Origin: Candidatus Velamenicoccus archaeovorus
Lineage (GTDB): Bacteria > Omnitrophota > Gorgyraeia > Velamenicoccales > Velamenicoccaceae
Assembly (NCBI RefSeq): GCF_004102945.1
Contig: NZ_CP019384.1
Span: forward strand, 450,001-482,000
Reading direction: 5' to 3'
Length of the DNA stretch: 32,000 bases
The position numbers and the translations under genes were made by a program. The notes beneath the pieces are model-generated. The model did not search any database and had not been told where the DNA came from. It was given only the letters and a program-made list of their open reading frames with translations. Positions within the stretch are counted from its first letter, which is position 1; each line of letters opens with the position of its first letter. Below are positions 2,723 to 29,047 of this stretch, piece by piece.

Positions 2723-3026
2723 AATGATCGCTTGAGATGTTTTCTAAATGTACTTTAACCTAAATATTATACTCCCCGCATAAAATTTCAATCTATTTCT
2801 ATGCGGCGGAGTATAAAAATATTGTTTAGCGTCTTAAAACACAGACAGTTTTCATGGAGTTCTTGGCCTGCATCGAGCAAGGACTTCAGTTCGTTTCACA
2901 AGGCGGGATTCCGTGCCTTCCTGGGATAGGGCACGCCTCATCCGATGGCCTTGAAGGTCTTTGCGCAAAGCCAAGGATAAAACCTCAAGGTGTTCAAAGA
3001 ACCTCTCTGAAAATGGCCGGATTTTC

Positions 3027-3054
3027 TTGTTTCCCCGCGCAATTCGGCTATAAT
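3027..3054 (+). promoter_or_regulatory. Sigma70-type promoter (TTGTTT-16-TATAAT) inside conserved 55-mer copy A
   Basis: ttgttt at 3027-3032 and tataat at 3049-3054. It lies upstream of the NlpC/P60 gene, and the same block recurs at 4751-4810. Confidence 0.5.
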
Positions 3055-3189
3055 GAAAAACTGATGATTCAGAGAGATCCAAGAGGGCGTGGGCCTATGG
3101 GATTTTTCTCATCTATTTCTCCCCGATACAAGCAATCCCGCCGATTTTTTATCAAAGACAGGCGGCGGCCTGATAAAAGCTGAAGGAGT

Positions 3190-4335: not shown

Positions 4336-4360
4336 CTGCATGTTTTGTGTAGAAAAAATT

Positions 4361-4478
4361 TTGACAGGAAAGATAAACGATTATAACATTATATCTTTCT
4401 GAGTGCATATATACAGGTTCGTGCGTGTGGAGAAGTATGAGACAAAGACGTCCATATGATCTTCTGGGGACGTCTTTT
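4361..4478 (+). promoter_or_regulatory. Repeat cassette copy 1: TTGACA-17-TAACAT promoter, short leader with mini-ORF start, hairpin with degraded T-tract
   Basis: About 97 nt (4382-4478) are near-identical to 9765-9862, with 2 mismatches by eye. TTGACA at 4361-4366, TAACAT at 4384-4389, stem aagacgtcc/ggacgtctt. Only 4 T follow the stem. Confidence 0.55.
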
Positions 4479-4640: not shown

Positions 4641-4758
4641 AACCCTCGCCTTGAATTTGTTTCCGCGCCGCAGGAACGCAAGAAGATCACCCTGCCGACA
4701 ACAACCCGGCACAGGCGTTAATTCCCCCAAAGCATCCTTTTTGAACCGCTGAATTTTC

Positions 4759-4786
4759 TTGTTTCCCCGCGTAATTCGGCTATAAT
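4759..4786 (+). promoter_or_regulatory. Sigma70-type promoter (TTGTTT-16-TATAAT) inside conserved 55-mer copy B, upstream of carB
   Basis: ttgttt at 4759-4764 and tataat at 4781-4786. The block 4751-4810 matches 3019-3078. Confidence 0.5.
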
Positions 4787-5016
4787 GGAAACCTGTGGAT
4801 TCAGAAAAGCCCGTCAGGACAAAGAAGTCAGCGGGCCTTTGACGTGCCTCGCGTTTTGAGACGCGGGGATTGATTTCCGCAGATACGAAACATCCTCCAT
4901 CTCTATGACGGACCTGACGATCAACGGCGATCGCCTTTACCGCAGTATCTTCCTTAACACACTCTTTGTCTCTCATCCTGTCTTAAATCCTGTTTCTGCC
5001 ATTTTCCGGAGGTTTC

Positions 5017-8000
5017 ATGCCCAGACGTAACGACATCCATAAGATCCTTATTATCGGTTCAGGCCCGATCATTATCGGCCAGGCGTGCGAGTTCGATTAT
5101 TCGGGGACCCAGGCGTGCAAGGCGTTGAAAAAAGAAGGTTATGAGATCGTTCTGGTTAACTCTAATCCGGCGACGATCATGACCGACCCGGGCATGGCGG
5201 ACAGGACATATATCGAACCCCTGACCGTTGAAAGCTTAGAGAAGATCATTGCCCAGGAAAGGCCCGATGCCCTGCTTCCGAATTTAGGCGGCCAGACCGG
5301 CCTTAATCTGGCGTCCAGCCTTTACAAGGCGGGTATCCTGAAAAAATACAAAGTCGAAGTGATCGGCGTCAAGGCGGACGCGATCGAACGCGGCGAAGAC
5401 CGGGAAGTTTTTAAGCAGACCATGAAGCAGTTGGATATTCCGGTACCTCGCTCGGAGATCGCGCATACCGTCGAGCAAGCCCAAGAGATCGCGTCGCGGA
5501 TCGGTTTGCCGGTCGTGGTCCGTCCGGCCTATACGCTGGGAGGGACCGGCGGCGGCATCGCCTACAACGGCGAGGAGCTTAAGGTCATCGCGACGCGCGG
5601 CCTGACCATGAGCATCGTCCATCAGGTTTTGATCGAAGAGGCGGTCATCGGCTGGGAAGAGCTTGAGCTTGAAGTCGTGCGCGACAAAAACAACCAGAAG
5701 ATCACCGTCTGTTTCATCGAAAATATCGATGCGATGGGCGTGCATACGGGCGACAGTTTTTGCGTGGCGCCGATGCTGACCGTCCCGAAAAAACTCCAGG
5801 AAAAAATGCAGGAGCTTTCCTATAAAATCGTTGACGCCATCGGCGTGGTCGGCGGCACGAACATCCAGTTTGCGCACAATAAGGCCGATGACCGCCTTGT
5901 CGTCATCGAGATCAACCCGAGGACGTCGCGCTCTTCGGCCCTGGCCTCCAAGGCCACGGGTTTTCCTATCGCCCTTGTGTCCACGCGGCTGGCGGCGGGG
6001 CTCACCCTTGATGAGATCCCATATTGGAAAGAAGGGACGCTGGAGAAGTATAAACCGAGCGGGGATTATGTCGTCATCAAATTTGCGCGCTGGGCCTTTG
6101 AGAAATTTGCGCAGGCCAAAGACGTCCTGGGGACCCAGATGAAGGCCGTCGGCGAAGTCATGAGCATCGGCAAGAATTTTAAAGAGGCTTTTCAAAAATC
6201 CATCCGGTCGCTTGAAATAGGCCGCCACGGGCTGGGCATGGCCAAGGATATCAGCAGTCTTTCGGCTGAAGAGCTCCTGGACCGCCTTTCGATGCCGTCG
6301 AGCGAGAGGGTGTTTTTGATGTATGAGGCCCTGCGCAAAGGCGTCAGCGTCAAAGAGCTCAATAAGCTGACGCACATCGGCTCCTGGTTCATCGGGGAGA
6401 TAAAAGACCTGGTGGAGTTCGAAGAGGAGATGAAGAAACATTCCTGGGGTGATCTTCCCGATGCGGGCCTCATCAAGGCCAAGGAGTGGGGTTTTTCCGA
6501 CAAATACCTATCCAAGCTTTTTAACGTCAAGGAATCCGAGGTGCGCAAAAAACGCCTGGCCGTGGGCAAGAAGGCCCGGTATGAAGCGGTGCCTGTCAGC
6601 GGCGTTGACAATGCCGCTTATTATTATTCGACGTATAGCGAAGGGAAAGACGAAGTCCCGGTATCACCGAACAAAAAAGTCATGATCCTGGGCGGCGGCC
6701 CCAACCGTATCGGCCAGGGGATCGAGTTTGATTATACCTGCGTGCATGCGGCGCTCGCGTTGCGGGATGAAGGTTATGAATCCATCATGGTGAATTGTAA
6801 TCCTGAGACCGTCTCGACCGATTACGATACGTCCAACAAGCTTTATTTCGAGCCCGTGACGGTGGAAGACGTCCTGGCCATTTACGAGAAAGAGAAGCCC
6901 ATCGGCGTGATCGCCCAGTTCGGCGGCCAGACGCCGCTGAATATCGCGGCAGAACTCAAGCGCTGCGGGGTCAGGATACTGGGGACGACTCCGGAGAATA
7001 TCGCCATGGCCGAGGACCGGGAACTTTTCCGCCAGAGGATGCTGGACCTGGGCATCCTGCAGCCGGAAAGCCAGACAGCGCGTTCGCTCGACGAGGCCCT
7101 GAAGATCGCCCAAAAGATCGGCTACCCTTTGATGGTCAGGCCTTCGTTTGTCCTGGGCGGCCGGGGCATGGAGATCATTTATGACGAATCGGCACTGGCC
7201 AAATACGCCCTGGAGGCCATCAACGTTTCGCCTGAATATCCCATGCTGATCGACAGGTTTTTGGAGGAGGCCCTCGAGACTGAAGTGGATGCGCTTTCTG
7301 ACGGGCAAGAGACGTTCGTCGCCGCCATCATGGAACACATCGAGCAGGCGGGCATTCACTCCGGGGACTCCGCCTGCGTGATCCCGCCGAGGTCCATCAA
7401 GCCCAAACACATCGAGACCATCATGAGATATACGGACATGATCGCCAAGAGCCTGGAGGTGGTCGGGCTGATGAATATCCAATATGCCATCTGCGGCGAC
7501 GAGGTTTATGTCTTGGAGGCAAACCCGCGGGCCTCCCGCACGGTCCCCGTTGTTTCCAAGGTCACGGGGATCCTGATCGCGCGCATCGCCACGCAGCTCA
7601 TGCTCGGCAAAAAGCTTACTGATTTTCCTCAACTGAAACGCAGGTTCAAGCCGCCCATGGTGGGCGTCAAAGAGGCCATCTTTCCTTTTAATATGTTTCC
7701 CGAAGTCGACCCTGTCCTTGGCCCCGAGATGAGAGCGACGGGCGAGGTGATGGGCGCTGCCGATACGTTTGAAGCCGCCTTCTTCAAGGCCGAGGACGCC
7801 GCGGGTTCGAGGCTTCCCCTTCAGGGGACCGTTTTGATCACTGTGACCGACAGCGATAAGAGGGAGGCCATCGGGTTGGCGCGCAAACTCAAAGAGCTGG
7901 GGTTCAACATTTATGCGACAGAACACACCGGACGCCATCTGAAAGAAAGAGGCATCGAAAACAGGGTGATCATGAAATTGCATGAGGGCAGGCCCAATAT

Positions 8001-8223
8001 CGCCGATGCCATTATCAACAAAGAAATCCAGTTGATCATCAACACGCCGGTGGGCAAGTCCGGCAAGGTCGACGACAGCTACATCCGGATCATGGCCATT
8101 CAGCATAAGATCCCGTATATCACGACGATGGCCGCGGCCAAGGCCAGCGTCGATGCGATCGAGGCCATGCGCAACAAAGAGATCGTTCCGAAGGCGCTGC
8201 AGGATTACCATAAGGGCGTGTAG
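5017..8223 (+). CDS. carB: Carbamoyl-phosphate synthase large subunit
   Basis: 1068 aa with two ATP-grasp halves (IGQACEFDYSGTQA and IGQGIEFDYTCVHA) and a C-terminal MGS-like domain. GGAGG lies 5 nt upstream of the ATG. No carA is adjacent. Confidence 0.97.
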   Translation: MPRRNDIHKILIIGSGPIIIGQACEFDYSGTQACKALKKEGYEIVLVNSNPATIMTDPGMADRTYIEPLTVESLEKIIAQERPDALLPNLGGQTGLNLASSLYKAGILKKYKVEVIGVKADAIERGEDREVFKQTMKQLDIPVPRSEIAHTVEQAQEIASRIGLPVVVRPAYTLGGTGGGIAYNGEELKVIATRGLTMSIVHQVLIEEAVIGWEELELEVVRDKNNQKITVCFIENIDAMGVHTGDSFCVAPMLTVPKKLQEKMQELSYKIVDAIGVVGGTNIQFAHNKADDRLVVIEINPRTSRSSALASKATGFPIALVSTRLAAGLTLDEIPYWKEGTLEKYKPSGDYVVIKFARWAFEKFAQAKDVLGTQMKAVGEVMSIGKNFKEAFQKSIRSLEIGRHGLGMAKDISSLSAEELLDRLSMPSSERVFLMYEALRKGVSVKELNKLTHIGSWFIGEIKDLVEFEEEMKKHSWGDLPDAGLIKAKEWGFSDKYLSKLFNVKESEVRKKRLAVGKKARYEAVPVSGVDNAAYYYSTYSEGKDEVPVSPNKKVMILGGGPNRIGQGIEFDYTCVHAALALRDEGYESIMVNCNPETVSTDYDTSNKLYFEPVTVEDVLAIYEKEKPIGVIAQFGGQTPLNIAAELKRCGVRILGTTPENIAMAEDRELFRQRMLDLGILQPESQTARSLDEALKIAQKIGYPLMVRPSFVLGGRGMEIIYDESALAKYALEAINVSPEYPMLIDRFLEEALETEVDALSDGQETFVAAIMEHIEQAGIHSGDSACVIPPRSIKPKHIETIMRYTDMIAKSLEVVGLMNIQYAICGDEVYVLEANPRASRTVPVVSKVTGILIARIATQLMLGKKLTDFPQLKRRFKPPMVGVKEAIFPFNMFPEVDPVLGPEMRATGEVMGAADTFEAAFFKAEDAAGSRLPLQGTVLITVTDSDKREAIGLARKLKELGFNIYATEHTGRHLKERGIENRVIMKLHEGRPNIADAIINKEIQLIINTPVGKSGKVDDSYIRIMAIQHKIPYITTMAAAKASVDAIEAMRNKEIVPKALQDYHKGV

Positions 8224-8753
8224 GGCCGCCGCACAAGCGGAGGGTTTAACCCAGAAAGGGTAGGCCTCTGCATTCCACATAGCGGAGGGTCTAATTCCGC
8301 CGGAGGCGGAAGGATTAAAGCAATCAACATTACTCCTTGCGTCTAATCACTTGGAAATTTTCGCCAGGGTAGGCCGTCGGCCTGGCGTAGCCGGCCAGGA
8401 CGGCCATCCGGCAAAAATTTCCTGCGTAGCCGCAGGGTTAATTTTGCAAGGAATAGGAACTCTATTATAGGCAAAATTAAGGAATAAGCGTTGACCCCTC
8501 GCTTAAGCACTTGAGAATTTTAGCCACGACGGGTCGGCAAAAATTCTCTGCGTAAGCTCGGAGTTAATTTTGTAAGGAAAGAGACCTCGATATAGGCAAA
8601 ATTAAGGAATAAGCATTGACTTCTCGCCTAAACACTCGAAAATTTACTGCCAGGGTTGGCTTGGCGGCCAGCCGGCGTAAATTTTCTTCGTAGGCTCGAA
8701 GTTGATTTTGCAAGGTAGGTAACCTCGCTATAGACAAAATCAAGGAGGGCAGT
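8224..8753 (+). repeat. Composite structured repeat array: H0/H1/H2 hairpins (8224-8329) plus three tandem U modules (8330-8490, 8491-8615, 8616-8749)
   Basis: Repeated units each carry two conserved hairpins (P1, P2) with compensatory substitutions. The last unit ends in AAGGAGG, 5 nt before the ATG at 8754. Confidence 0.8.
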
Positions 8754-9719
8754 ATGAAGACGAAGGAGATCCCGGCCGACAAACTGAACTCTAGGCTTTT
8801 CATCGCAGAAAAAGTCAGGGACATCGACCGGGCCGTCAAATCCGGTTTTGCCATTAACGCCCTTTCCGGCGGCGTGGATTCATCGGCTGTCACCATGCTG
8901 GGGCACAAGGCCCTGGGCAAGAGGCTCAAGACTTATTTCATCGATAACGGCATTATGCGCCGCAATGAACCGCGGCAGATCGTCCTTTTATTCAAGCGGC
9001 TGGGCGTTACGGTGGATATCATCGACGCCAAAGAAAAATTCTTTAAGGCCCTCAAGGGGGTAACGGACCCCGAAGAAAAGAGGGAGGCCATCACCAGGAC
9101 ATTCTATAAGGATGTCTTCGGCAGTCTGGTGAGGAACAGCAAGGCCAAGTATCTTTTGCAGGGGACTATTTTGACGGACGTCGATGAGACGGTCGCCGGC
9201 ATCAAGCGCCAGCACAATGTTTTCAAGCAATTGGGGATCGACCCGCAGAAGGCCTTTGGTTATAAGATCCTGGAGCCTCTGGTCCAGCTGCGTAAAGACG
9301 GCGTGCGCAAGGTCGCCCAGGCGCTGGGATTGCCGCCTTCAGTATTCAGCCGTATGCCGTTTCCCGGGCCGGCCCTGGCCGCTCGCGTGATCGGCGAGGT
9401 GACACCCGAGAAAATCGAAATGGTGCGTCATGCCACGGCCATTACGGAAGAGGCCCTTGTCTCACAGAAGGCGTTTCAATGCATGGCCATTCTTCACAAC
9501 GACCGGGTCACGGGCATCCGGGACGGCAGGAGGGATTTCGGCATGCAGATAGAGATCCGTTGCTGGGACAGTATCGACGCCCGCAAAGCAGAGCCGACCA
9601 GGCTCCCTTATGAGATACTCAGTCTTCTGGCGAGGCGTATCGTGACGGAAGTCCCTGGCGTCGTGAGCGTGACCTATAACATCACGCCCAAGCCGCCGTC
9701 GACCATGGAAGCGATATAA
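8754..9719 (+). CDS. GMP synthase ATP-pyrophosphatase subunit (subunit-B type, no glutaminase domain)
   Basis: PP-loop ALSGGVDSSAV. guaA-like blocks FIDNGIMRRNE, LLQGTI..DV, ILEPL..LRKD.VR, PFPGPALA.RV, and a C-terminal KPPSTMEAI. The 321 aa correspond to the C-terminal half of bacterial GuaA. Confidence 0.8.
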   Translation: MKTKEIPADKLNSRLFIAEKVRDIDRAVKSGFAINALSGGVDSSAVTMLGHKALGKRLKTYFIDNGIMRRNEPRQIVLLFKRLGVTVDIIDAKEKFFKALKGVTDPEEKREAITRTFYKDVFGSLVRNSKAKYLLQGTILTDVDETVAGIKRQHNVFKQLGIDPQKAFGYKILEPLVQLRKDGVRKVAQALGLPPSVFSRMPFPGPALAARVIGEVTPEKIEMVRHATAITEEALVSQKAFQCMAILHNDRVTGIRDGRRDFGMQIEIRCWDSIDARKAEPTRLPYEILSLLARRIVTEVPGVVSVTYNITPKPPSTMEAI

Positions 9720-9743
9720 GACTGTTGAGCCGATAAAAAAATA

Positions 9744-9873
9744 TTGACAGGTCGGCAAAACGGTTATAACATTATATCTTTCTGAGTGCATATATACAGG
9801 TTCATGCGTGTGGAGTAGTATGAGACAAAGACGTCCATATGATCTTCTGGGGACGTCTTTTTTTTGCACCTAG
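9744..9873 (+). promoter_or_regulatory. Repeat cassette copy 2: promoter, 17-codon Arg-rich mini-ORF and intrinsic terminator upstream of the nfnA-like gene
   Basis: TTGACA at 9744-9749 and TAACAT at 9767-9772. GGAG then ATG at 9820 (MRQRRPYDLLGTSFFCT*, stop 9871-9873). Stem 9828-9836/9851-9859 followed by T8 (9858-9865). Confidence 0.6.
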
Positions 9874-10761: not shown

Positions 10762-12185
10762 AAAAAGAACCGGTCAAGATCAAAGAGAGGGACAAGCTTT
10801 CCAGGGCCAGGGATTTTGAAGAGGTCGTCCTCGGGTTTTCCGAAGGAGAGGCCCTGGAGGAGGCGTCGCGCTGTCTCCAATGCAAAGACCCCAAATGTAT
10901 TGCCGGCTGTCCTGTCGGGATAGACATCAAGGCTTTTATCGGCCAATTGACGAAAAAAGATTATGACGGGGCTTATGCGACGATCCGTCAGAAGAGCAAT
11001 TTTCCCTCCATATGCGGCAGGGTGTGTCCTGCCGAATACCAGTGCCGCAAGGCATGTGTCTTTACCAAAAAAGGCGAGCCCTTTGCGTCCCAGCAGGCTA
11101 TCAATATCCATTTTTTAGAAAGGTTTATCGGCGACCACGGCGCCAAAAAAGGCCTTCACCTCAAGGCATCCGGTGGCTCCAAATATAAAGGGGTGAAAGT
11201 GGCAGTGGTCGGTTCGGGCCCGGCCGGGCTTTGCTGCGCGGGCGAACTGGCGCGCCAGGGCATCAAGGTCGTTATTTTTGAGGGGCTGCACAAGACGGGC
11301 GGCGTCCTGCGTTACGGCATTCCGCCTTTCCGTCTTCCCAGGAAGATCCTCGACTCGGAGATCAATTCTTTAAAAGAACTCGGCGTTGAGATCCACTTGA
11401 ATACTATCATCGGCAAGGCCAAGACGATCGACGAGCTTTTCGGCGAGGGTTTTTCCGCCATATTCCTCGGCCTGGGAGCCGGGATCCCGTCGTTCTTGGG
11501 TGTCCCCGGGGAAAACCTCTGCAATGTCTATTCCGCCAATGAATTTTTGACCAGGGTCAATTTGATGAATGCGCATTTGTTCCCTGTCAGCCACACCCCG
11601 ATCAATATCGGCAGACATATCGTTGTGATCGGCGGCGGCAATACGGCGATGGACGCGGCGCGCGTCGCGATCAGACTGCAGCATTTGGCGGGGGTCCCGC
11701 CCGACACGACTATTTGCTACCGGCGCACGGAAGTCGAGATGCCGGCGCGCAGGCTTGAAATTGAACATGCCAAAGAAGAAGGCGTCAAATTCGATTTCCT
11801 GGTCAAGCCGGAAGAATTTTCAGGTGATGAAAAGGGGTTCGTCGGAAAGATGTGCTCCAGCCGCTGCGAGCTCGGAGAGCCGGATAGCTCCGGAAGGCGC
11901 AGGCCTGTGGTTATTCCTGACAGCCATTTCGAGGTGGATTGCGATCTGGCCGTCATTGCAGTCGGGTTGGGCGCCAACAAGATCCTGACCAGCGTGACGC
12001 CTCAGTTGAAAACCGATAAATACGGCGACGTCACCGTGGATCCCCAGACCATGGAGACGTCCATCAAGGGTGTTTTTGCCGGCGGAGATATCGTAGGAGG
12101 AGAGGGGACTGTGATCGAGGCCATGGGCATGGCCAAGAAGGCGGCCAGCGCTATCCTTGATTACCTGGACAGGAAATCCAAAGAT

Positions 12186-12188
<3 letters not shown>
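10758..12188 (+). CDS. GltD-family NADPH-dependent oxidoreductase, NfnB/SudA-type (glutamate synthase small-chain-like)
   Basis: N-terminal Fe-S motifs CLQCKDPKCIAGCPVGIDI and CGRVCP. Two Rossmann motifs, VAVVGSGPAGL and VVIGGGNTAMD. 476 aa. Confidence 0.85.
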
Positions 12189-13865
<1,677 letters not shown>

Positions 13866-22590: not shown

Positions 22591-22962
22591 GTGCGTCAGG
22601 GACAGAAGATATCTTTGTGGCTTGGGATTGTTTTGATCCTGTCTGTCGGTTTGATCCATGCGTGCGATGCGCCGGACAGCTTCAGGGATGCGGTGTATAA
22701 AGGCTGGCTTTTTTATCTTAATGGCGCCGGGGCGATCGTTGCGGCCGTCGGTATCTTGCGCCGCAAGCCTTGGGGTTGGAACCTTGGTTTTGTGATCGCG
22801 GCATGTTCTTTTGTGGGCTATGTGGCCAGCCGTACGGTGGGGTTGCCTTTTATTGCAGCCGAACCCGACGCCTGGCTGGAACCGCTGGGCGTCGCCTCCC
22901 TGGTTACGGAGGGTTTATTTGTGGTGTTATTCGTCGGGACGAGGTGCCTGTTTAAAAAATAA
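22591..22962 (+). CDS. Small 4-TM membrane protein of unknown function
   Basis: AAGGAGG at 22578-22584 lies 6 nt before the GTG at 22591. Four hydrophobic segments. Immediately upstream of copA. Confidence 0.55.
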
Positions 22963-22966
22963 CCTT

Positions 22967-25237
22967 ATGGCAAGAGACCCCATTTGCGGAATGGACGTCA
23001 AGGAAGATAAGGCCATCTCATTGAGACGAGATGGCCTTGTTTATTATTTTTGCAGCGAGTATTGCAAGGAAAAGTTTCTGGCTTCTTCGGGAGGACAAAA
23101 ATCCGCACCATCTTTCGGGGCCGGCGGATACACCTGCCCGATGCATCCGGATGTGAGGCGTGACAGGCCTGGGGATTGTCCGAAGTGCGGCATGCGTCTG
23201 GAGCCTGTGATGCCTGCAGGGTCTGGCCATGAAGAAGACGGCGATCTTCGGTCGTTGTCCGTGAAGTTCTGGACAGGATTGGTGTGTGCCCTTCCTGTTC
23301 TTGTTTTGACTCTTGGAAACATGATCCCGGCTGTCGCCGCGCGGTCTCCTGCGCCTTACATCGTTTCTTCATGGATCCAGCTTTCTTTTTCGACGCTGGT
23401 CGTTGTTTGGGCCGGCGGATTTCTCTTTGCCAGGGCCTGGCAGTCCCTTGTTCACAAAAGCCCGAATATGTTCACGCTGGTCGCACTAGGCGTCGGGGCA
23501 GCTTACGGCTACAGCGCCGCGGCTGTTCTGCGGCCTCAGGTTTTTCCGCAAATATTGAAGAAGGCGGGCCAGATCGATCTTTATTTTGAAGCTGCCGTCG
23601 TCATTACTCTCTTGGTTATCCTGGGGCAGCTTTTGGAGGCTAGGGCGCGCAGCCGGACAGGAGCGGCGATCAGGGCGCTCTTGGATCTTGCGGCAAAGAG
23701 CGCCCATCGTGTGCACGACGGTGTCGAAGAAGATGTTCCGGCGGAGGCGGTCGGCAAGGGGGATATTTTAAGGGTGCGGCCGGGCGAAAAGGTCCCGTTC
23801 GACGGCGTCGTGATTGAAGGCCGTAGCGCTGTGGATGAATCCATGATCACCGGCGAACCCATGGCTGTCCAGAAAAAACCAGGGGACAGGGTCGTAGGGG
23901 CAACGGTCAATCAGACAGGGACGTTTTTGATGCGGGCTGAGAAGATCGGCTCCGAAACCGTCCTGGCACAGATCGTCCGCATGGTCTCTGACGCCCAGAG
24001 GAGCCGGGCGCCTATCCAGGGGGTCGCCGACAGGATATCCGCATATTTTGTTCCTTCTGTGGCTGGGGTTTCCCTGTTGACGTTCATCGTATGGTTTTTC
24101 GTCGGGCCGGAACCGAGATTGGCCCACGCCCTTGTGAATGCCATCGCCGTCCTGATTGTCGCCTGCCCGTGCGCCCTCGGTTTGGCGACGCCGATGTCCA
24201 TCATGGTGGGTGTCGGCCGCGGCGCCCAGGCAGGCATCCTGATCAAAAACGCGGAGGCCATCGAGAAGGCCGAAAAGATCACGCATCTTTTGACGGATAA
24301 GACCGGGACCCTGACAGAGGGCAGGCCTCGCGTGGTGACGGCAATCGCAGCCCCGGGGGTGGATCAGAATTATTTCTTAACTTTTGTTGTTTCTCTTGAG
24401 AAAAACAGCGAGCACCCCCTGGCCCGCTCTATCGTTGATTTTGCCGACGAGCAGGGTGTCAGGCCGCAAGGCGTTGAACATTTTGAGTCAGTGACGGGCG
24501 GCGGAATCCGGGGGCGCGTCGGCGGCGTAACCGTTCTTGTCGGCAAACAAAAATTCATCGAAGCATCCGGTGTCCGTATTCTGCCGGCCGTCGCACAGCA
24601 AGCCCTCGAAGCGGAAGGGCGGGCCCAGACCGTCGTTTGGGCGGCGGTCGATGGACAACTTGCCGGGATCCTCGGGATCGCAGATCCGGTCAAAGCGACA
24701 ACGCCCGGGGCCGTGCGGCAATTGCACCGGATGGGGCTTAAAGTCATCATGCTGACCGGCGACAATCGAAAAACTGCCGAGGAGATCGCCAACCAGCTGG
24801 GTCTTGATGGTTTCCGGGCGGAGCTTGAACCGAAGACCAAACAGGGGGCCGTCAAGGAATGGAAGGCCAAGGGTGCAGTCGTGATGGTTGCCGGCGATGG
24901 GATCAATGATGCCCCTGCCCTGGCCGAGGCGGATGTCGGCATGGCGATGGGTACGGGAACAGACGTGGCTATCGAAAGCGCGGCTATCACTCTTGTTAAA
25001 GGAGATCTCAACGGCATAGTCAAGACCTTGCATCTGAGTAAAGGGGTGATGAGGAATGTCCGGCAGAATCTTTTTTTCGCTTTTGTGTATAATATCCTTG
25101 GTGTGCCCATTGCCGCCGGCGCTCTTTATCCGTTCTTCGGCCTTTTGTTGAGCCCTGTGATCGCGGGGGCGGCCATGAGTTTCAGTTCGGTTTCTGTGAT
25201 CGGGAATGCCTTAAGACTACGCCGTTTAAAAATCTGA
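22967..25237 (+). CDS. copA: Copper-translocating P1B-type ATPase
   Basis: TM CPC motif ([12 protein letters not shown]), [22 protein letters not shown]. The N-terminus has ICGMDV...YYFCSEYC (TRASH/YHS-like) and CPMHPDV...CPKCGM motifs instead of MxCxxC. ATG 22967 was chosen because residues upstream in the ORF overlap the previous gene. Confidence 0.92.
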
Positions 25238-25269
25238 CCGAAGGAGAATGCGTTTATGAAAATTTTCAA

Positions 25270-25398
25270 GTGCGGAGATATGGAACATATCTCCCTTTTT
25301 TTATTTTGTCTATTGTTGCCGGATGCGTCACGCCGAAAGTCTATGTGAATCCGCAGAAGACGGTCGAGGAGATCGGCGAGGACGAGGCAGGGAGATAA
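25270..25398 (+). CDS. Mini-lipoprotein (42 aa), start uncertain
   Basis: The GTG frame gives MRRYGTYLPFFILSIVAG|CVTPKVYVNPQKTVEEIGEDEAGR*, with a lipobox. The ATG at 25256, with AAGGAG 9 nt upstream, is out of frame by one T at the T7 tract 25296-25302. Confidence 0.4.
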   Translation: MRRYGTYLPFFILSIVAGCVTPKVYVNPQKTVEEIGEDEAGR

Positions 25399-25652
25399 CC
25401 CAGAAAGGGTAGGCCTTCCTCATACCATTAAAGGAAGGGCCTAACCCAGAAAGGGTAGGCCTTCGCAATACCAAATAAGCGAAGGGCCTAATTTTACCGG
25501 AGGCGGAAGGATTAAGGAAATAAACGTTACTCCTTGTCTAAGCACTTGAAAATTTATGCCAAGACACGTCGGCATAAATTTTCTTCGCAGGCTCGGAGTT
25601 CATTTTGTAACGAAAGGCTACCCTGTTATAGGCAAAATGAAGGAGGCGTAAG
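25399..25652 (+). repeat. Structured repeat array: H1 (25399-25444), H1 (25445-25491), H2 (25492-25510), U module (25527-25647)
   Basis: Same module family as 8224-8753. It begins directly after the TAA at 25396-25398 and ends in AAGGAGG, 6 nt before the ATG at 25653. Confidence 0.8.
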
Positions 25653-26339
25653 ATGAAGCGGGTGTTGTTGTGGTCTGTATGCGGCATTGTTTTTTTGGGG
25701 GCGCTGGGGCATATCCTGTTTTACGAACATGCCAAAGATGCAAAACGGCGGGAATTGCGTCGGGAATTGATGGCGATTGCCGCGAAGTCTGCGTCATCCA
25801 TTGACGCCGCCACTCTTGCCCGGATCCCCTTGACGATGGACGGCGATAAGTCGCCGGAATACAAGGCCATATTCGATACGTTGTTGCAGATAAAAGAGGC
25901 CTATCCTATCGTTAAATATGTGTATATCTTGACCAACACCAACGAGCCGGGGATCCTCCAGTTTGTCGTGGACGCCGATCCGCTGCCGGCCATCATTACT
26001 GCCAAGAGTCAGAGGTCTTTTCCGGGCGACAAGTACGATGCGCGCAGCTATCCTGGAATGTTGAACGGTTTCCGAGGACCGTCCGCCGACAGGAAGATCA
26101 GCATGGATGATTGGGGCGTGACGCTTTCGGGCTATGCGCCGATCAAGGATGCCGGCGGAAAGGCCGTCGCGATCCTCTGTATTGATATGGATGCCGGCCG
26201 GCTGTACGCCTATCTCCAGAGTGTCAGGCCTATTATTTTTCTCTTGTGGGCCTTGGTTGCGGCCGCCGTCATCGCGTTCATGGTAGATCTCGCCTTGAGA
26301 AAAAAAATTGTTCCGGGAGGCTCGTCGCAGAAGCCGTGA
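25653..26339 (+). CDS. Membrane-anchored Cache/PDC-like extracytoplasmic domain protein (2 TM, no output domain)
   Basis: N-terminal and C-terminal TM helices flank a domain with YVYIL...QFVVDAD...DDWGVTLSGYAPIKDAGGK.VAIL.IDM, as seen at the N-termini of sensor kinases and cyclases. Confidence 0.6.
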   Translation: MKRVLLWSVCGIVFLGALGHILFYEHAKDAKRRELRRELMAIAAKSASSIDAATLARIPLTMDGDKSPEYKAIFDTLLQIKEAYPIVKYVYILTNTNEPGILQFVVDADPLPAIITAKSQRSFPGDKYDARSYPGMLNGFRGPSADRKISMDDWGVTLSGYAPIKDAGGKAVAILCIDMDAGRLYAYLQSVRPIIFLLWALVAAAVIAFMVDLALRKKIVPGGSSQKP

Positions 26340-28846: not shown

Positions 28847-28967
28847 GGCCATAACTTACGCCTGCCTTTGGCCCTGGCCTTGCCCTCGGCCTGCCCTTCG
28901 GGCAAGGCCAGGGCCAAAGGCAGGCAGGGAACCGTCGCGTTGCTCATGGTGCGTAAGTTATATGGCC
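28847..28967. repeat. Large GC-rich nested palindrome (REP-like, CTGGCCTTGCCC family)
   Basis: Perfect 24-bp stem 28861-28884 / 28901-28924. Outer stem ggccataacttacgc / gcgtaagttat(at)ggcc. Confidence 0.75.
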
Positions 28968-28972
28968 GAATT

Positions 28973-29047
28973 ATTTCGCCGCATTCTGCGGCGAAATCAG
29001 ACCCTTCCTTTATATGGAATGAGGAAGGTCTACCCCTTGTGGGTTAA
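28973..29047 (-). repeat. H1 + H2 hairpin modules in inverted orientation
   Basis: The minus strand reads ttaacccacaaggggtagaccttcc..ggaagggtctgatttcgccgcagaatgcggcgaaat. This matches ttaacccagaaagggtaggcc...gggtctaattccgccggaggcggaa at 8246-8311. Confidence 0.7.

Follow-up and report, generated by a model that had tools for sequence, protein, structure and literature searches.

What is the array of stem-loop modules that fills an intergenic region of Candidatus Velamenicoccus archaeovorus from the stop codon of one gene to the ribosome-binding site (RBS) of the next, and why does it lie exactly there? The region belongs to a stretch of 32,000 nucleotides (the window; contig NZ_CP019384.1, positions 450,001 to 482,000) and holds the third of three such arrays. 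The initial annotation of this DNA saw in them either a portable cassette for translation initiation or mRNA stability, or the common element of a post-transcriptional regulon. We find that the arrays belong to a real and robust repeat family, which is apparently undescribed: a literature search on intergenic or palindromic repeats of Omnitrophota returned nothing relevant, the whole window gave no Rfam match at the gathering score, and E-value searches of arrays 1 and 3 against Rfam reached only 0.3-8 at best.

Architecture of the arrays

The third array (25396-25652, + strand) has the order H1-H1-H2-U and closes on AAGGAGG-N6-ATG, as the initial annotation described it, and the same geometry recurs in arrays 1 and 2. 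It opens with two head-to-tail copies of H1, a separate module of about 48 nt with two hairpins. Copy a (25396..25444) forms the small hairpins CCC-AGAAA-GGG and TAGGCCTTCC...GGAAGGGCCTA and folds with an MFE of -18.1 (z -2.3), while copy b (25442..25491) reaches -19.7 (z -3.9). Next comes H2 (25489..25514), a degenerate short hairpin of the P2 type with the sequence TAATTTTACC GGA GGCGGAAGGATTA; P2 exists in a long and a short form, and H2 is a short variant, as can be seen by comparing TTAATTCCGCCAGAGGCGGAATTAA in locus L037 with TTAATCTCGCCAGAGGCGAGATTAA. The unit U of this array (U3a, 25514-25644) begins with an interior junction and the unit leader (25514..25529, AAGGAAATAAACGTTA). It continues with the rod (25530..25598), a long imperfect hairpin whose outer helix P0 is CTCC...GGAG and whose helix P1 pairs GAAAATTTATGCC (25548-25560) with GGCATAAATTTTC (25571-25583), and ends with the P2 hairpin (25599..25641, TTCATTTTG...CAAAATGAA), the final two bases of which are shared with AAGGAGG. 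The gene start itself (25640..25655) consists of AAGGAGG (25640-25646), the 6-nt spacer CGTAAG and the ATG at 25653. All these features lie on the + strand, as does the downstream gene (25653-26339), which encodes a PDC/Cache-like membrane protein of 228 aa. The protein has no Pfam match, and its homologues are named PDC sensor protein or hypothetical protein of Candidatus Omnitrophica.

On the upstream side, the last large gene encodes a Cu-ATPase (Pfam; 22811-25237) and is followed by two overlapping small frames (25256-25398) with a counterpart in locus L054 (2676-2846). The frame that ends at the TAA at 25396-25398 has a GTG start and 42 codons (25270-25398), and the peptide that it specifies is lipobox-like (..LSIVAGC..) and has a conserved counterpart in L054; the JGI annotation of L054 and L055 calls no gene at this small frame. 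In L054 the frame runs for 15 more codons before its own stop, which indicates that the window copy was cut short by the H1 module. The initial annotation had the array begin just after the TAA. The TAA turns out to be the first three bases of H1 itself: all three + strand H1 copies of the window begin with TAACCC, and other loci have GGAGTTAACCC before H1. Stop codons of upstream genes are also found within 5' arms of P2, namely in locus L012 and in array 2, where the TGA of the GltD-like gene (12186-12188) is part of the partial P2 that opens the array. Each array contains at least three stop codons per frame in all three frames. Hence, that an array directly follows a stop codon is largely because the element supplies stops. 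For annotation, this means that arrays shift apparent gene ends.

Array 1 (8224..8753, +) spans the interval from the stop of carB (5017-8223) to the ATG at 8754 of a gene for a GMP-synthase-C / PP-loop protein. It consists of a hairpin (8224-8246), H1 (8247-8294), H2 (8293-8318) and the three units U1a (8310-8483), U1b (8479-8608) and U1c (8604-8746), and its end is formed by AAGGAGG (8742-8748) and 5 nt before the ATG. Array 2 (12185..12527, +) lies downstream of a DHODB-FeS/GltD-like gene pair (9919 and 10758; Pfam). Its partial P2 (12185-12229) is followed by the units U2a (12225-12389) and U2b (12385-12521), the latter with a short P2' form (12494-12518, TTAATCTCGCC-AGA-GGCGAGATTAA), and by AAGGAGG (12517-12523), 4 nt and the ATG of gdhA at 12528; carB, the GMP-synthase-C / PP-loop gene and gdhA were all named by Pfam. 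Most genes of the window are without a clear Shine-Dalgarno sequence, and only the three genes downstream of arrays have the full AAGGAGG. Antisense modules are also present, with H1 at 28999-29046 and an H2-like hairpin at 28973-28997 on the - strand (together 28973..29046). They lie 3' of a radical-SAM gene, with the next promoter-like site downstream of them. The same gene is directly followed by a long nested palindrome (28851-28961), which precedes the modules and has perfect 26-nt arms (28860-28885/28900-28925) within 11-nt arms (28851-28861/28951-28961).

Two other kinds of repeat occur in the window. A repeat of 126 nt (4353-4478 and 9736-9861, +, 93% identity) has a promoter-like start (TTGACA-N17-TATAAC), then about 85 nt, a hairpin (AGACGTCC...GGGACGTCT) and a T-run. 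Its copies are placed upstream of the carB region and directly upstream of the DHODB-FeS/GltD-like pair, respectively. The repeat has no Rfam match and is a candidate for a small RNA or a leader/attenuator common to nitrogen-metabolism genes. A repeat of 58 nt (3016-3073 and 4748-4805, +, 88% identity) contains the promoter-like stretch TTGTTT...TATAAT, and its second copy is located about 210 nt upstream of carB.

That the three arrays form one repeat family, as had been claimed from inspection, is borne out by the frequency of their core sequences. The P2 18-mer TATAGGCAAAATTAAGGA (up to three mismatches) has 6 matches on the + strand of the window where 0.02 are expected, the H1 20-mer is present 4 times (0.00 expected) and the H2 19-mer twice (0.02 expected). 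Furthermore, two of the arrays have 175 nt in common at 93% identity. When the six U units of the window are aligned, their parts are the leader (AAGGAATAAGCGTT), the rod and P2. The rod measures about 70-110 nt and comprises the outer helices P0a and P0b, a conserved asymmetric internal loop, P1 of 10-13 bp and a variable apex, which is frequently a nested palindrome. P2 has the sequence TTNATTTTG...CAAAATNAA, after which GGA follows. Whole units are 125-175 nt long, not consistently in multiples of three. Modules are joined head-to-tail at TTAA/AAGGA junctions, which read AAGGAG(G) at the terminus and AAGGAA(T/A)TAA in the interior, and in several loci H1 is nested within the 5' arm of P2 at TTAA/TTTTG. 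Small open reading frames that run through the units in the manner of MIRU can be ruled out, given at least three stops in every frame of all arrays.

The helices covary. A covariance model built from eight units found 56 copies across the window and 33 related loci. In the 55 distinct copies, 91.5% of the cells are paired, a share that drops to 41-56% if partners are shifted by 1-3 columns; both-sided changes are seen in 23 of 29 pairs of the covariance-model alignment, and none of 500 shuffles matched the observed pairing values. The third pair of the P2 stem, for instance, is seen as A-T, G-C and C-G, and the unpaired loop bases YAAGGAA and TTATAGG of P2 are highly conserved. In the stems, G.U exceeds A.C (76 to 52; p = 0.04 on non-independent copies), which is a weak pointer to the sense strand as the folding strand; G.T in single-stranded DNA would look alike.

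Distribution, position and orientation

The initial annotation had implied a preference for the site immediately 5' of start codons, and this could be evaluated in genomes and metagenomes. Species-representative genomes were scanned with a pattern made of P2 only, free of any Shine-Dalgarno sequence or start codon. Multiple matches were obtained in four MAGs, labelled Planctomycetia (two), Omnitrophica UBA6210 and Deltaproteobacteria. Flanking genes are 83-93% identical at the DNA level among three of these MAGs, which therefore represent related species, and the protein names point to Omnitrophota. A metagenome scan with the same kind of pattern yielded 38 loci, and the family is present in about 28 of them. 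The exact gdhA sequence is found on only one contig of the collection, L001 (GCA_041890195.1, JBEEQD010071226.1; 2.9 kb), where gdhA starts at base 269, such that the contig begins 268 nt upstream, inside the repeat array. Apparently, these repeats break short-read assemblies.

The preference for start codons held throughout. A co-oriented start codon follows 48 of 48 arrays (the window plus 31 genome loci), at a distance of up to 15 nt from the last unit in 40 of them; the other eight mostly have more modules before the start, or starts that were miscalled in our analysis. Likewise, a same-strand start follows all 31 distinct terminal P2 modules of the metagenome loci, 29 of them at -4 to +13 nt, and the other seven metagenome P2 modules are mostly interior ones with the next unit behind them (ATAAACGTT...). 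The terminal P2 arm abuts AAGGA(G) shortly before the start well beyond the window. In at least five loci, representing two gene junctions, TTAATGA takes the place of TTAAGGA, and its ATG is the start codon, e.g., of pheT. In the loci L037, L018 and L039, the arrays lie in long gaps with promoter-like sites and abut the downstream start, not the upstream gene, which identifies the start side as the anchor.

Orientation is equally strict for part of the modules. P2 was found 59 times in sense and never in antisense orientation, and opposite-strand matches to the rod are only palindromic echoes of sense matches. H1 and H2 are antisense in 5 of 30 cases; besides the case in the window, such copies occur immediately 3' of a gene in L004 and L030. 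These two thus behave more like free small palindromic inserts, whereas P2 and the rod keep the strict rule. On every contig, all copies are on a single strand, an observation that fits an orientation linked to replication as well as one linked to transcription; as for counts of opposite-strand genes, our crude ORF calling yields too many spurious antisense frames.

Proposed mode of insertion, turnover and constraint

How would arrays come to lie flush with start codons, and what keeps them there? The explanation that we favor, and in which we have moderate confidence as a whole, is that the arrays belong to a lineage-specific mosaic family of stem-loop repeats from Candidatus Omnitrophota, whose members are anchored on Shine-Dalgarno sequences, co-transcribed with their neighbors, kept for their helices and probably used as punctuation. 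Insertion, or copying driven by microhomology, would be anchored on the Shine-Dalgarno-like sequence (T)TAAGGA(G) and build up the arrays, so that they would end flush with the RBS and in the orientation of the gene; an asymmetric target within the Shine-Dalgarno sequence would by itself explain both properties. Since spacers are short, the array would usually reach back to the upstream stop codon, or supply one. We infer that the arrays are transcribed within 5' UTRs or intercistronic RNA, because operon genes flank them and promoter-like sites precede them. After insertion, they would be retained under structural constraint and probably serve as intercistronic punctuation in which stops in three frames end upstream translation. 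In this model, the long rod would be a plausible processing or stabilizing hairpin, and P2 might clamp the upstream RNA beside a strong Shine-Dalgarno sequence. Partition-function folding gave a Shine-Dalgarno accessibility no different from that of other window genes. An effect of the arrays on mRNA stability or translation is plausible. A further-reaching version would have the Shine-Dalgarno sequence as integration anchor for a strictly sense colonization before starts, the arrays later being co-opted as a genome-wide operon punctuation of Omnitrophota (processing, stability, insulation of the RBS); this we consider unlikely.

Comparison of orthologous junctions reveals turnover. At the junction of the third array, L054, with a protein 93% identical to that of the window, carries an H1 remnant, H1 and P2. 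In L056 (70% identical), the order is a rod remnant, H1, H2, a divergent rod with a compensated P1, and a short P2, and L058 (54% identical, different synteny) has no array and an AAGGAG of its own. The rpsR junction contains one, two or three units in three MAGs. It is these differences in modules, along with the 175-nt segment shared by two arrays, that show turnover. Two pairs of empty and filled sites are available. The left ends of the arrays are variable and AAGGA direct repeats flank the units, with no clean target-site duplication definable.

At the same time, there is evidence for constraint. The pheS-pheT array of two species is 93.2% identical over 162 nt without gaps, and the third codon positions of pheS and pheT beside it are 73-77% identical. 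Among its 11 substitutions, the P0, P1 and main P2 helices are hit only by two changes from U.G to C-G, and three more substitutions fall in a small apical stem without covariation support. With raw MFE structures, the distribution of substitutions over paired and unpaired positions was not significant, such that the clean status is limited to the covariation-supported helices, a distinction that we made post hoc. In other orthologous arrays, identity over the alignable sequence is 80-88%, compared to 55-77% at third positions. Conservation between orthologs could partly reflect gene conversion from conserved paralogs, which counts against our explanation. The covariation together with the one slow-evolving orthologous array in part demonstrates and in part suggests that individual copies are kept under selection for their helices.

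This bears on an alternative that we regard as possible but doubtful, namely that the arrays are nothing but selfish DNA of a MITE-like kind. The hairpins, folded as single-stranded DNA, would be read by a transposase or recombinase that inserts them at an asymmetric target like TTAAGGA, and the RNA would have no function. Orientation and proximity to the start would need no cause beyond the target, or would reflect insertion specific to one replication strand, as is the case for IS200/IS605 and REP. The existence of empty and filled sites, the gain and loss of modules between close relatives and the 175-nt segment at 93% identity in two arrays would be expected of such DNA, and so would H1 copies nested in the 5' arm of P2, antisense copies of H1 and H2, head-to-tail arrangement and a single strand for all copies of a contig. 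However, the pheS-pheT copy, which has evolved much more slowly than synonymous sites and with covariation-supported helices untouched, does not resemble a decaying insert, and arrays persist at the same junctions in species whose flanking genes differ by 10-17%. Nor was a transposase seen (without a genome-wide search) or a clean target-site duplication found.

A second alternative is the one raised by the initial annotation, a portable cassette that donates the RBS and perhaps the context of the start, as has been described for Neisseria REP2 and Borrelia IR. Such RBS-carrying repeats provide a precedent (PMC3184786), the terminal modules end with UUAAGGAG(G), a strong match to the anti-Shine-Dalgarno, where most other window genes have no strong Shine-Dalgarno sequence, and in the TTAATGA variants the element even contains the ATG. 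We nevertheless deem donation improbable, because array-free relatives own a Shine-Dalgarno-like sequence at two junctions. The empty locus L052 (...GCGTTCGTTGAAGGAGGTTCCATG, no array) and the filled loci L072 and L070, with an array of 200-245 nt, have the identical ending AAGGAGGTTCCATG. At the rpsF junction, the empty L029 reads TAGggggtattaaggcATG, with no array and the Shine-Dalgarno-like GGGGTATTAAGGCATG; in the filled L030 and L041, the stop codon is followed by the array, which ends in ...AAAATTAAGGA, and then by GGTTATT...ATG, so that the homologous spacer is kept after AAGGA. It does speak for a cassette that the filled rpsF site has AAGGAGG and the empty one GGGG only, but L058, an array-free distant relative, again has its own AAGGAG. 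Furthermore, a promoter-like match is present in some units only and its -35 hexamer is not conserved. The notion that ATGAAG is part of the element had to be abandoned: fed genes elsewhere, i.e., those directly downstream of arrays, start with ATGAGA, ATGACA, ATGGTT, ATGGCC, ATGAAA, GTG and others. In the window, ATGAAG opens 6 of the 27 listed ORFs, among them all three fed genes and 3 of the other 24. The Shine-Dalgarno sequence would seem to be at least partly native, with the array landing beside an existing site.

The idea of a post-transcriptional regulon, in which the loops of P2 and rod (AAGGAA, UAUAGG, repeated GGA) would bind one RNA-binding protein or small RNA, found no support, and we judge it very improbable. 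The strong conservation of YAAGGAA and TTATAGG in the P2 loop and the several GGA motifs that lie no more than about 40 nt from the Shine-Dalgarno sequence are in its favor. Yet, short P2' and H2 occupy the same position without those loop motifs, the number of units at one junction varies freely across species, and the fed genes have heterogeneous housekeeping functions (ribosomal proteins, pheT, oxidoreductase subunits, gdhA and membrane proteins). That the units punctuate transcription, the rod with UUAAUUUUG being a partial intrinsic terminator and a TTGAC-N16-GAnAAT promoter in some units restarting synthesis, is hardly credible: there are 6 terminator-like matches where 0.9 are expected and, within array 1, 2 promoter-like matches where 0.5 are expected (a promoter-like score of 9/12 is reached by two of six window units), but P0, which has covariation support, competes with the local hairpin that resembles a terminator, short P2' forms are without a U-run, TTGAC occurs in only about one third of the units, and arrays lie inside essential operons, e.g., pheST. 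P2 was also considered as a promoter and rejected, since TTGYAA and TATAGG are spaced by 13-16 nt, the final T is missing, and the promoter scanner gives no flag.

Relation to known repeat families

The closest analogs of the family are REP2, MIRU, Correia and BIME. The REP2 repeats of Neisseria and the IR repeats of Borrelia lie immediately upstream of ORFs and comprise two stem-loops, a promoter, an RBS and an ATG (PMC3184786). Like REP2 and the Borrelia plasmid IR, the Omnitrophota repeats are dispersed directly upstream of unrelated ORFs (here after 48/48 arrays and 31/31 terminal P2 modules), have two internal stem-loops and end in AAGGA or, in the TTAATGA variants, contain the ATG, although array-free sites already carry AAGGAGG or a G-rich Shine-Dalgarno-like sequence. 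In contrast to REP2, which is present in one copy per site and brings a promoter, the units form tandem mosaic arrays, often within operons; they have no conserved promoter-like match, the Shine-Dalgarno sequence appears at least partly native, and the phylum is a different one, the comparison being one of descriptions only.

MIRU are co-transcribed intercistronic units that overlap the neighboring genes (PMC3184786). The likeness to them is considerable, as both are found in tandem in intercistronic spacers and in one orientation, have empty and filled sites and overlap the ends of flanking genes, with co-transcription being presumed in our case. MIRU, however, are 40-100 bp long and contain small ORFs coupled to their neighbors, whereas the units described here measure 125-175 nt and have stops in all frames and long covarying hairpins.

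RNase III binding and control over adjacent genes have been reported for Correia elements (PMC2649163), and both Correia (CREE/NEMIS) and ERIC sequences are reportedly bound or cut by RNase III or RNase E, altering the expression of their neighbors (PMC2649163, PMC3184786). These are likewise palindromic repeats that fold as long hairpins in mRNA, which our arrays would do if transcribed as we suppose. Correia and ERIC sequences occur in either orientation and have no tie to the start codon, whereas P2-bearing arrays are 100% sense and flush with the start. With enterobacterial REP/BIME, the family has in common that mosaics of small palindromic units lie in intergenic spacers with a copy number that varies between relatives; BIME are made of alternating inverted REP and lie mostly 3' of genes, whereas the much longer units here are direct repeats and have the downstream start as their anchor. 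With respect to the REP/RAYT or IS200/IS605 model, the use of one strand per contig fits it and a transcription-linked model alike.

The family does not fall under the full definition of REP2, MIRU or Correia/ERIC. Known bacterial interspersed repeats are mostly orientation-free and located 3' of genes, whereas this family, in its P2-bearing arrays, is 100% sense, flush with the start, covarying and retained at the same operon junctions across species. It points to an insertion anchored on Shine-Dalgarno sequences and offers concrete RNA helices for experiments. With these properties, it is an unusually clean case for the question of whether interspersed repeats act as parasites, as regulators or as both.
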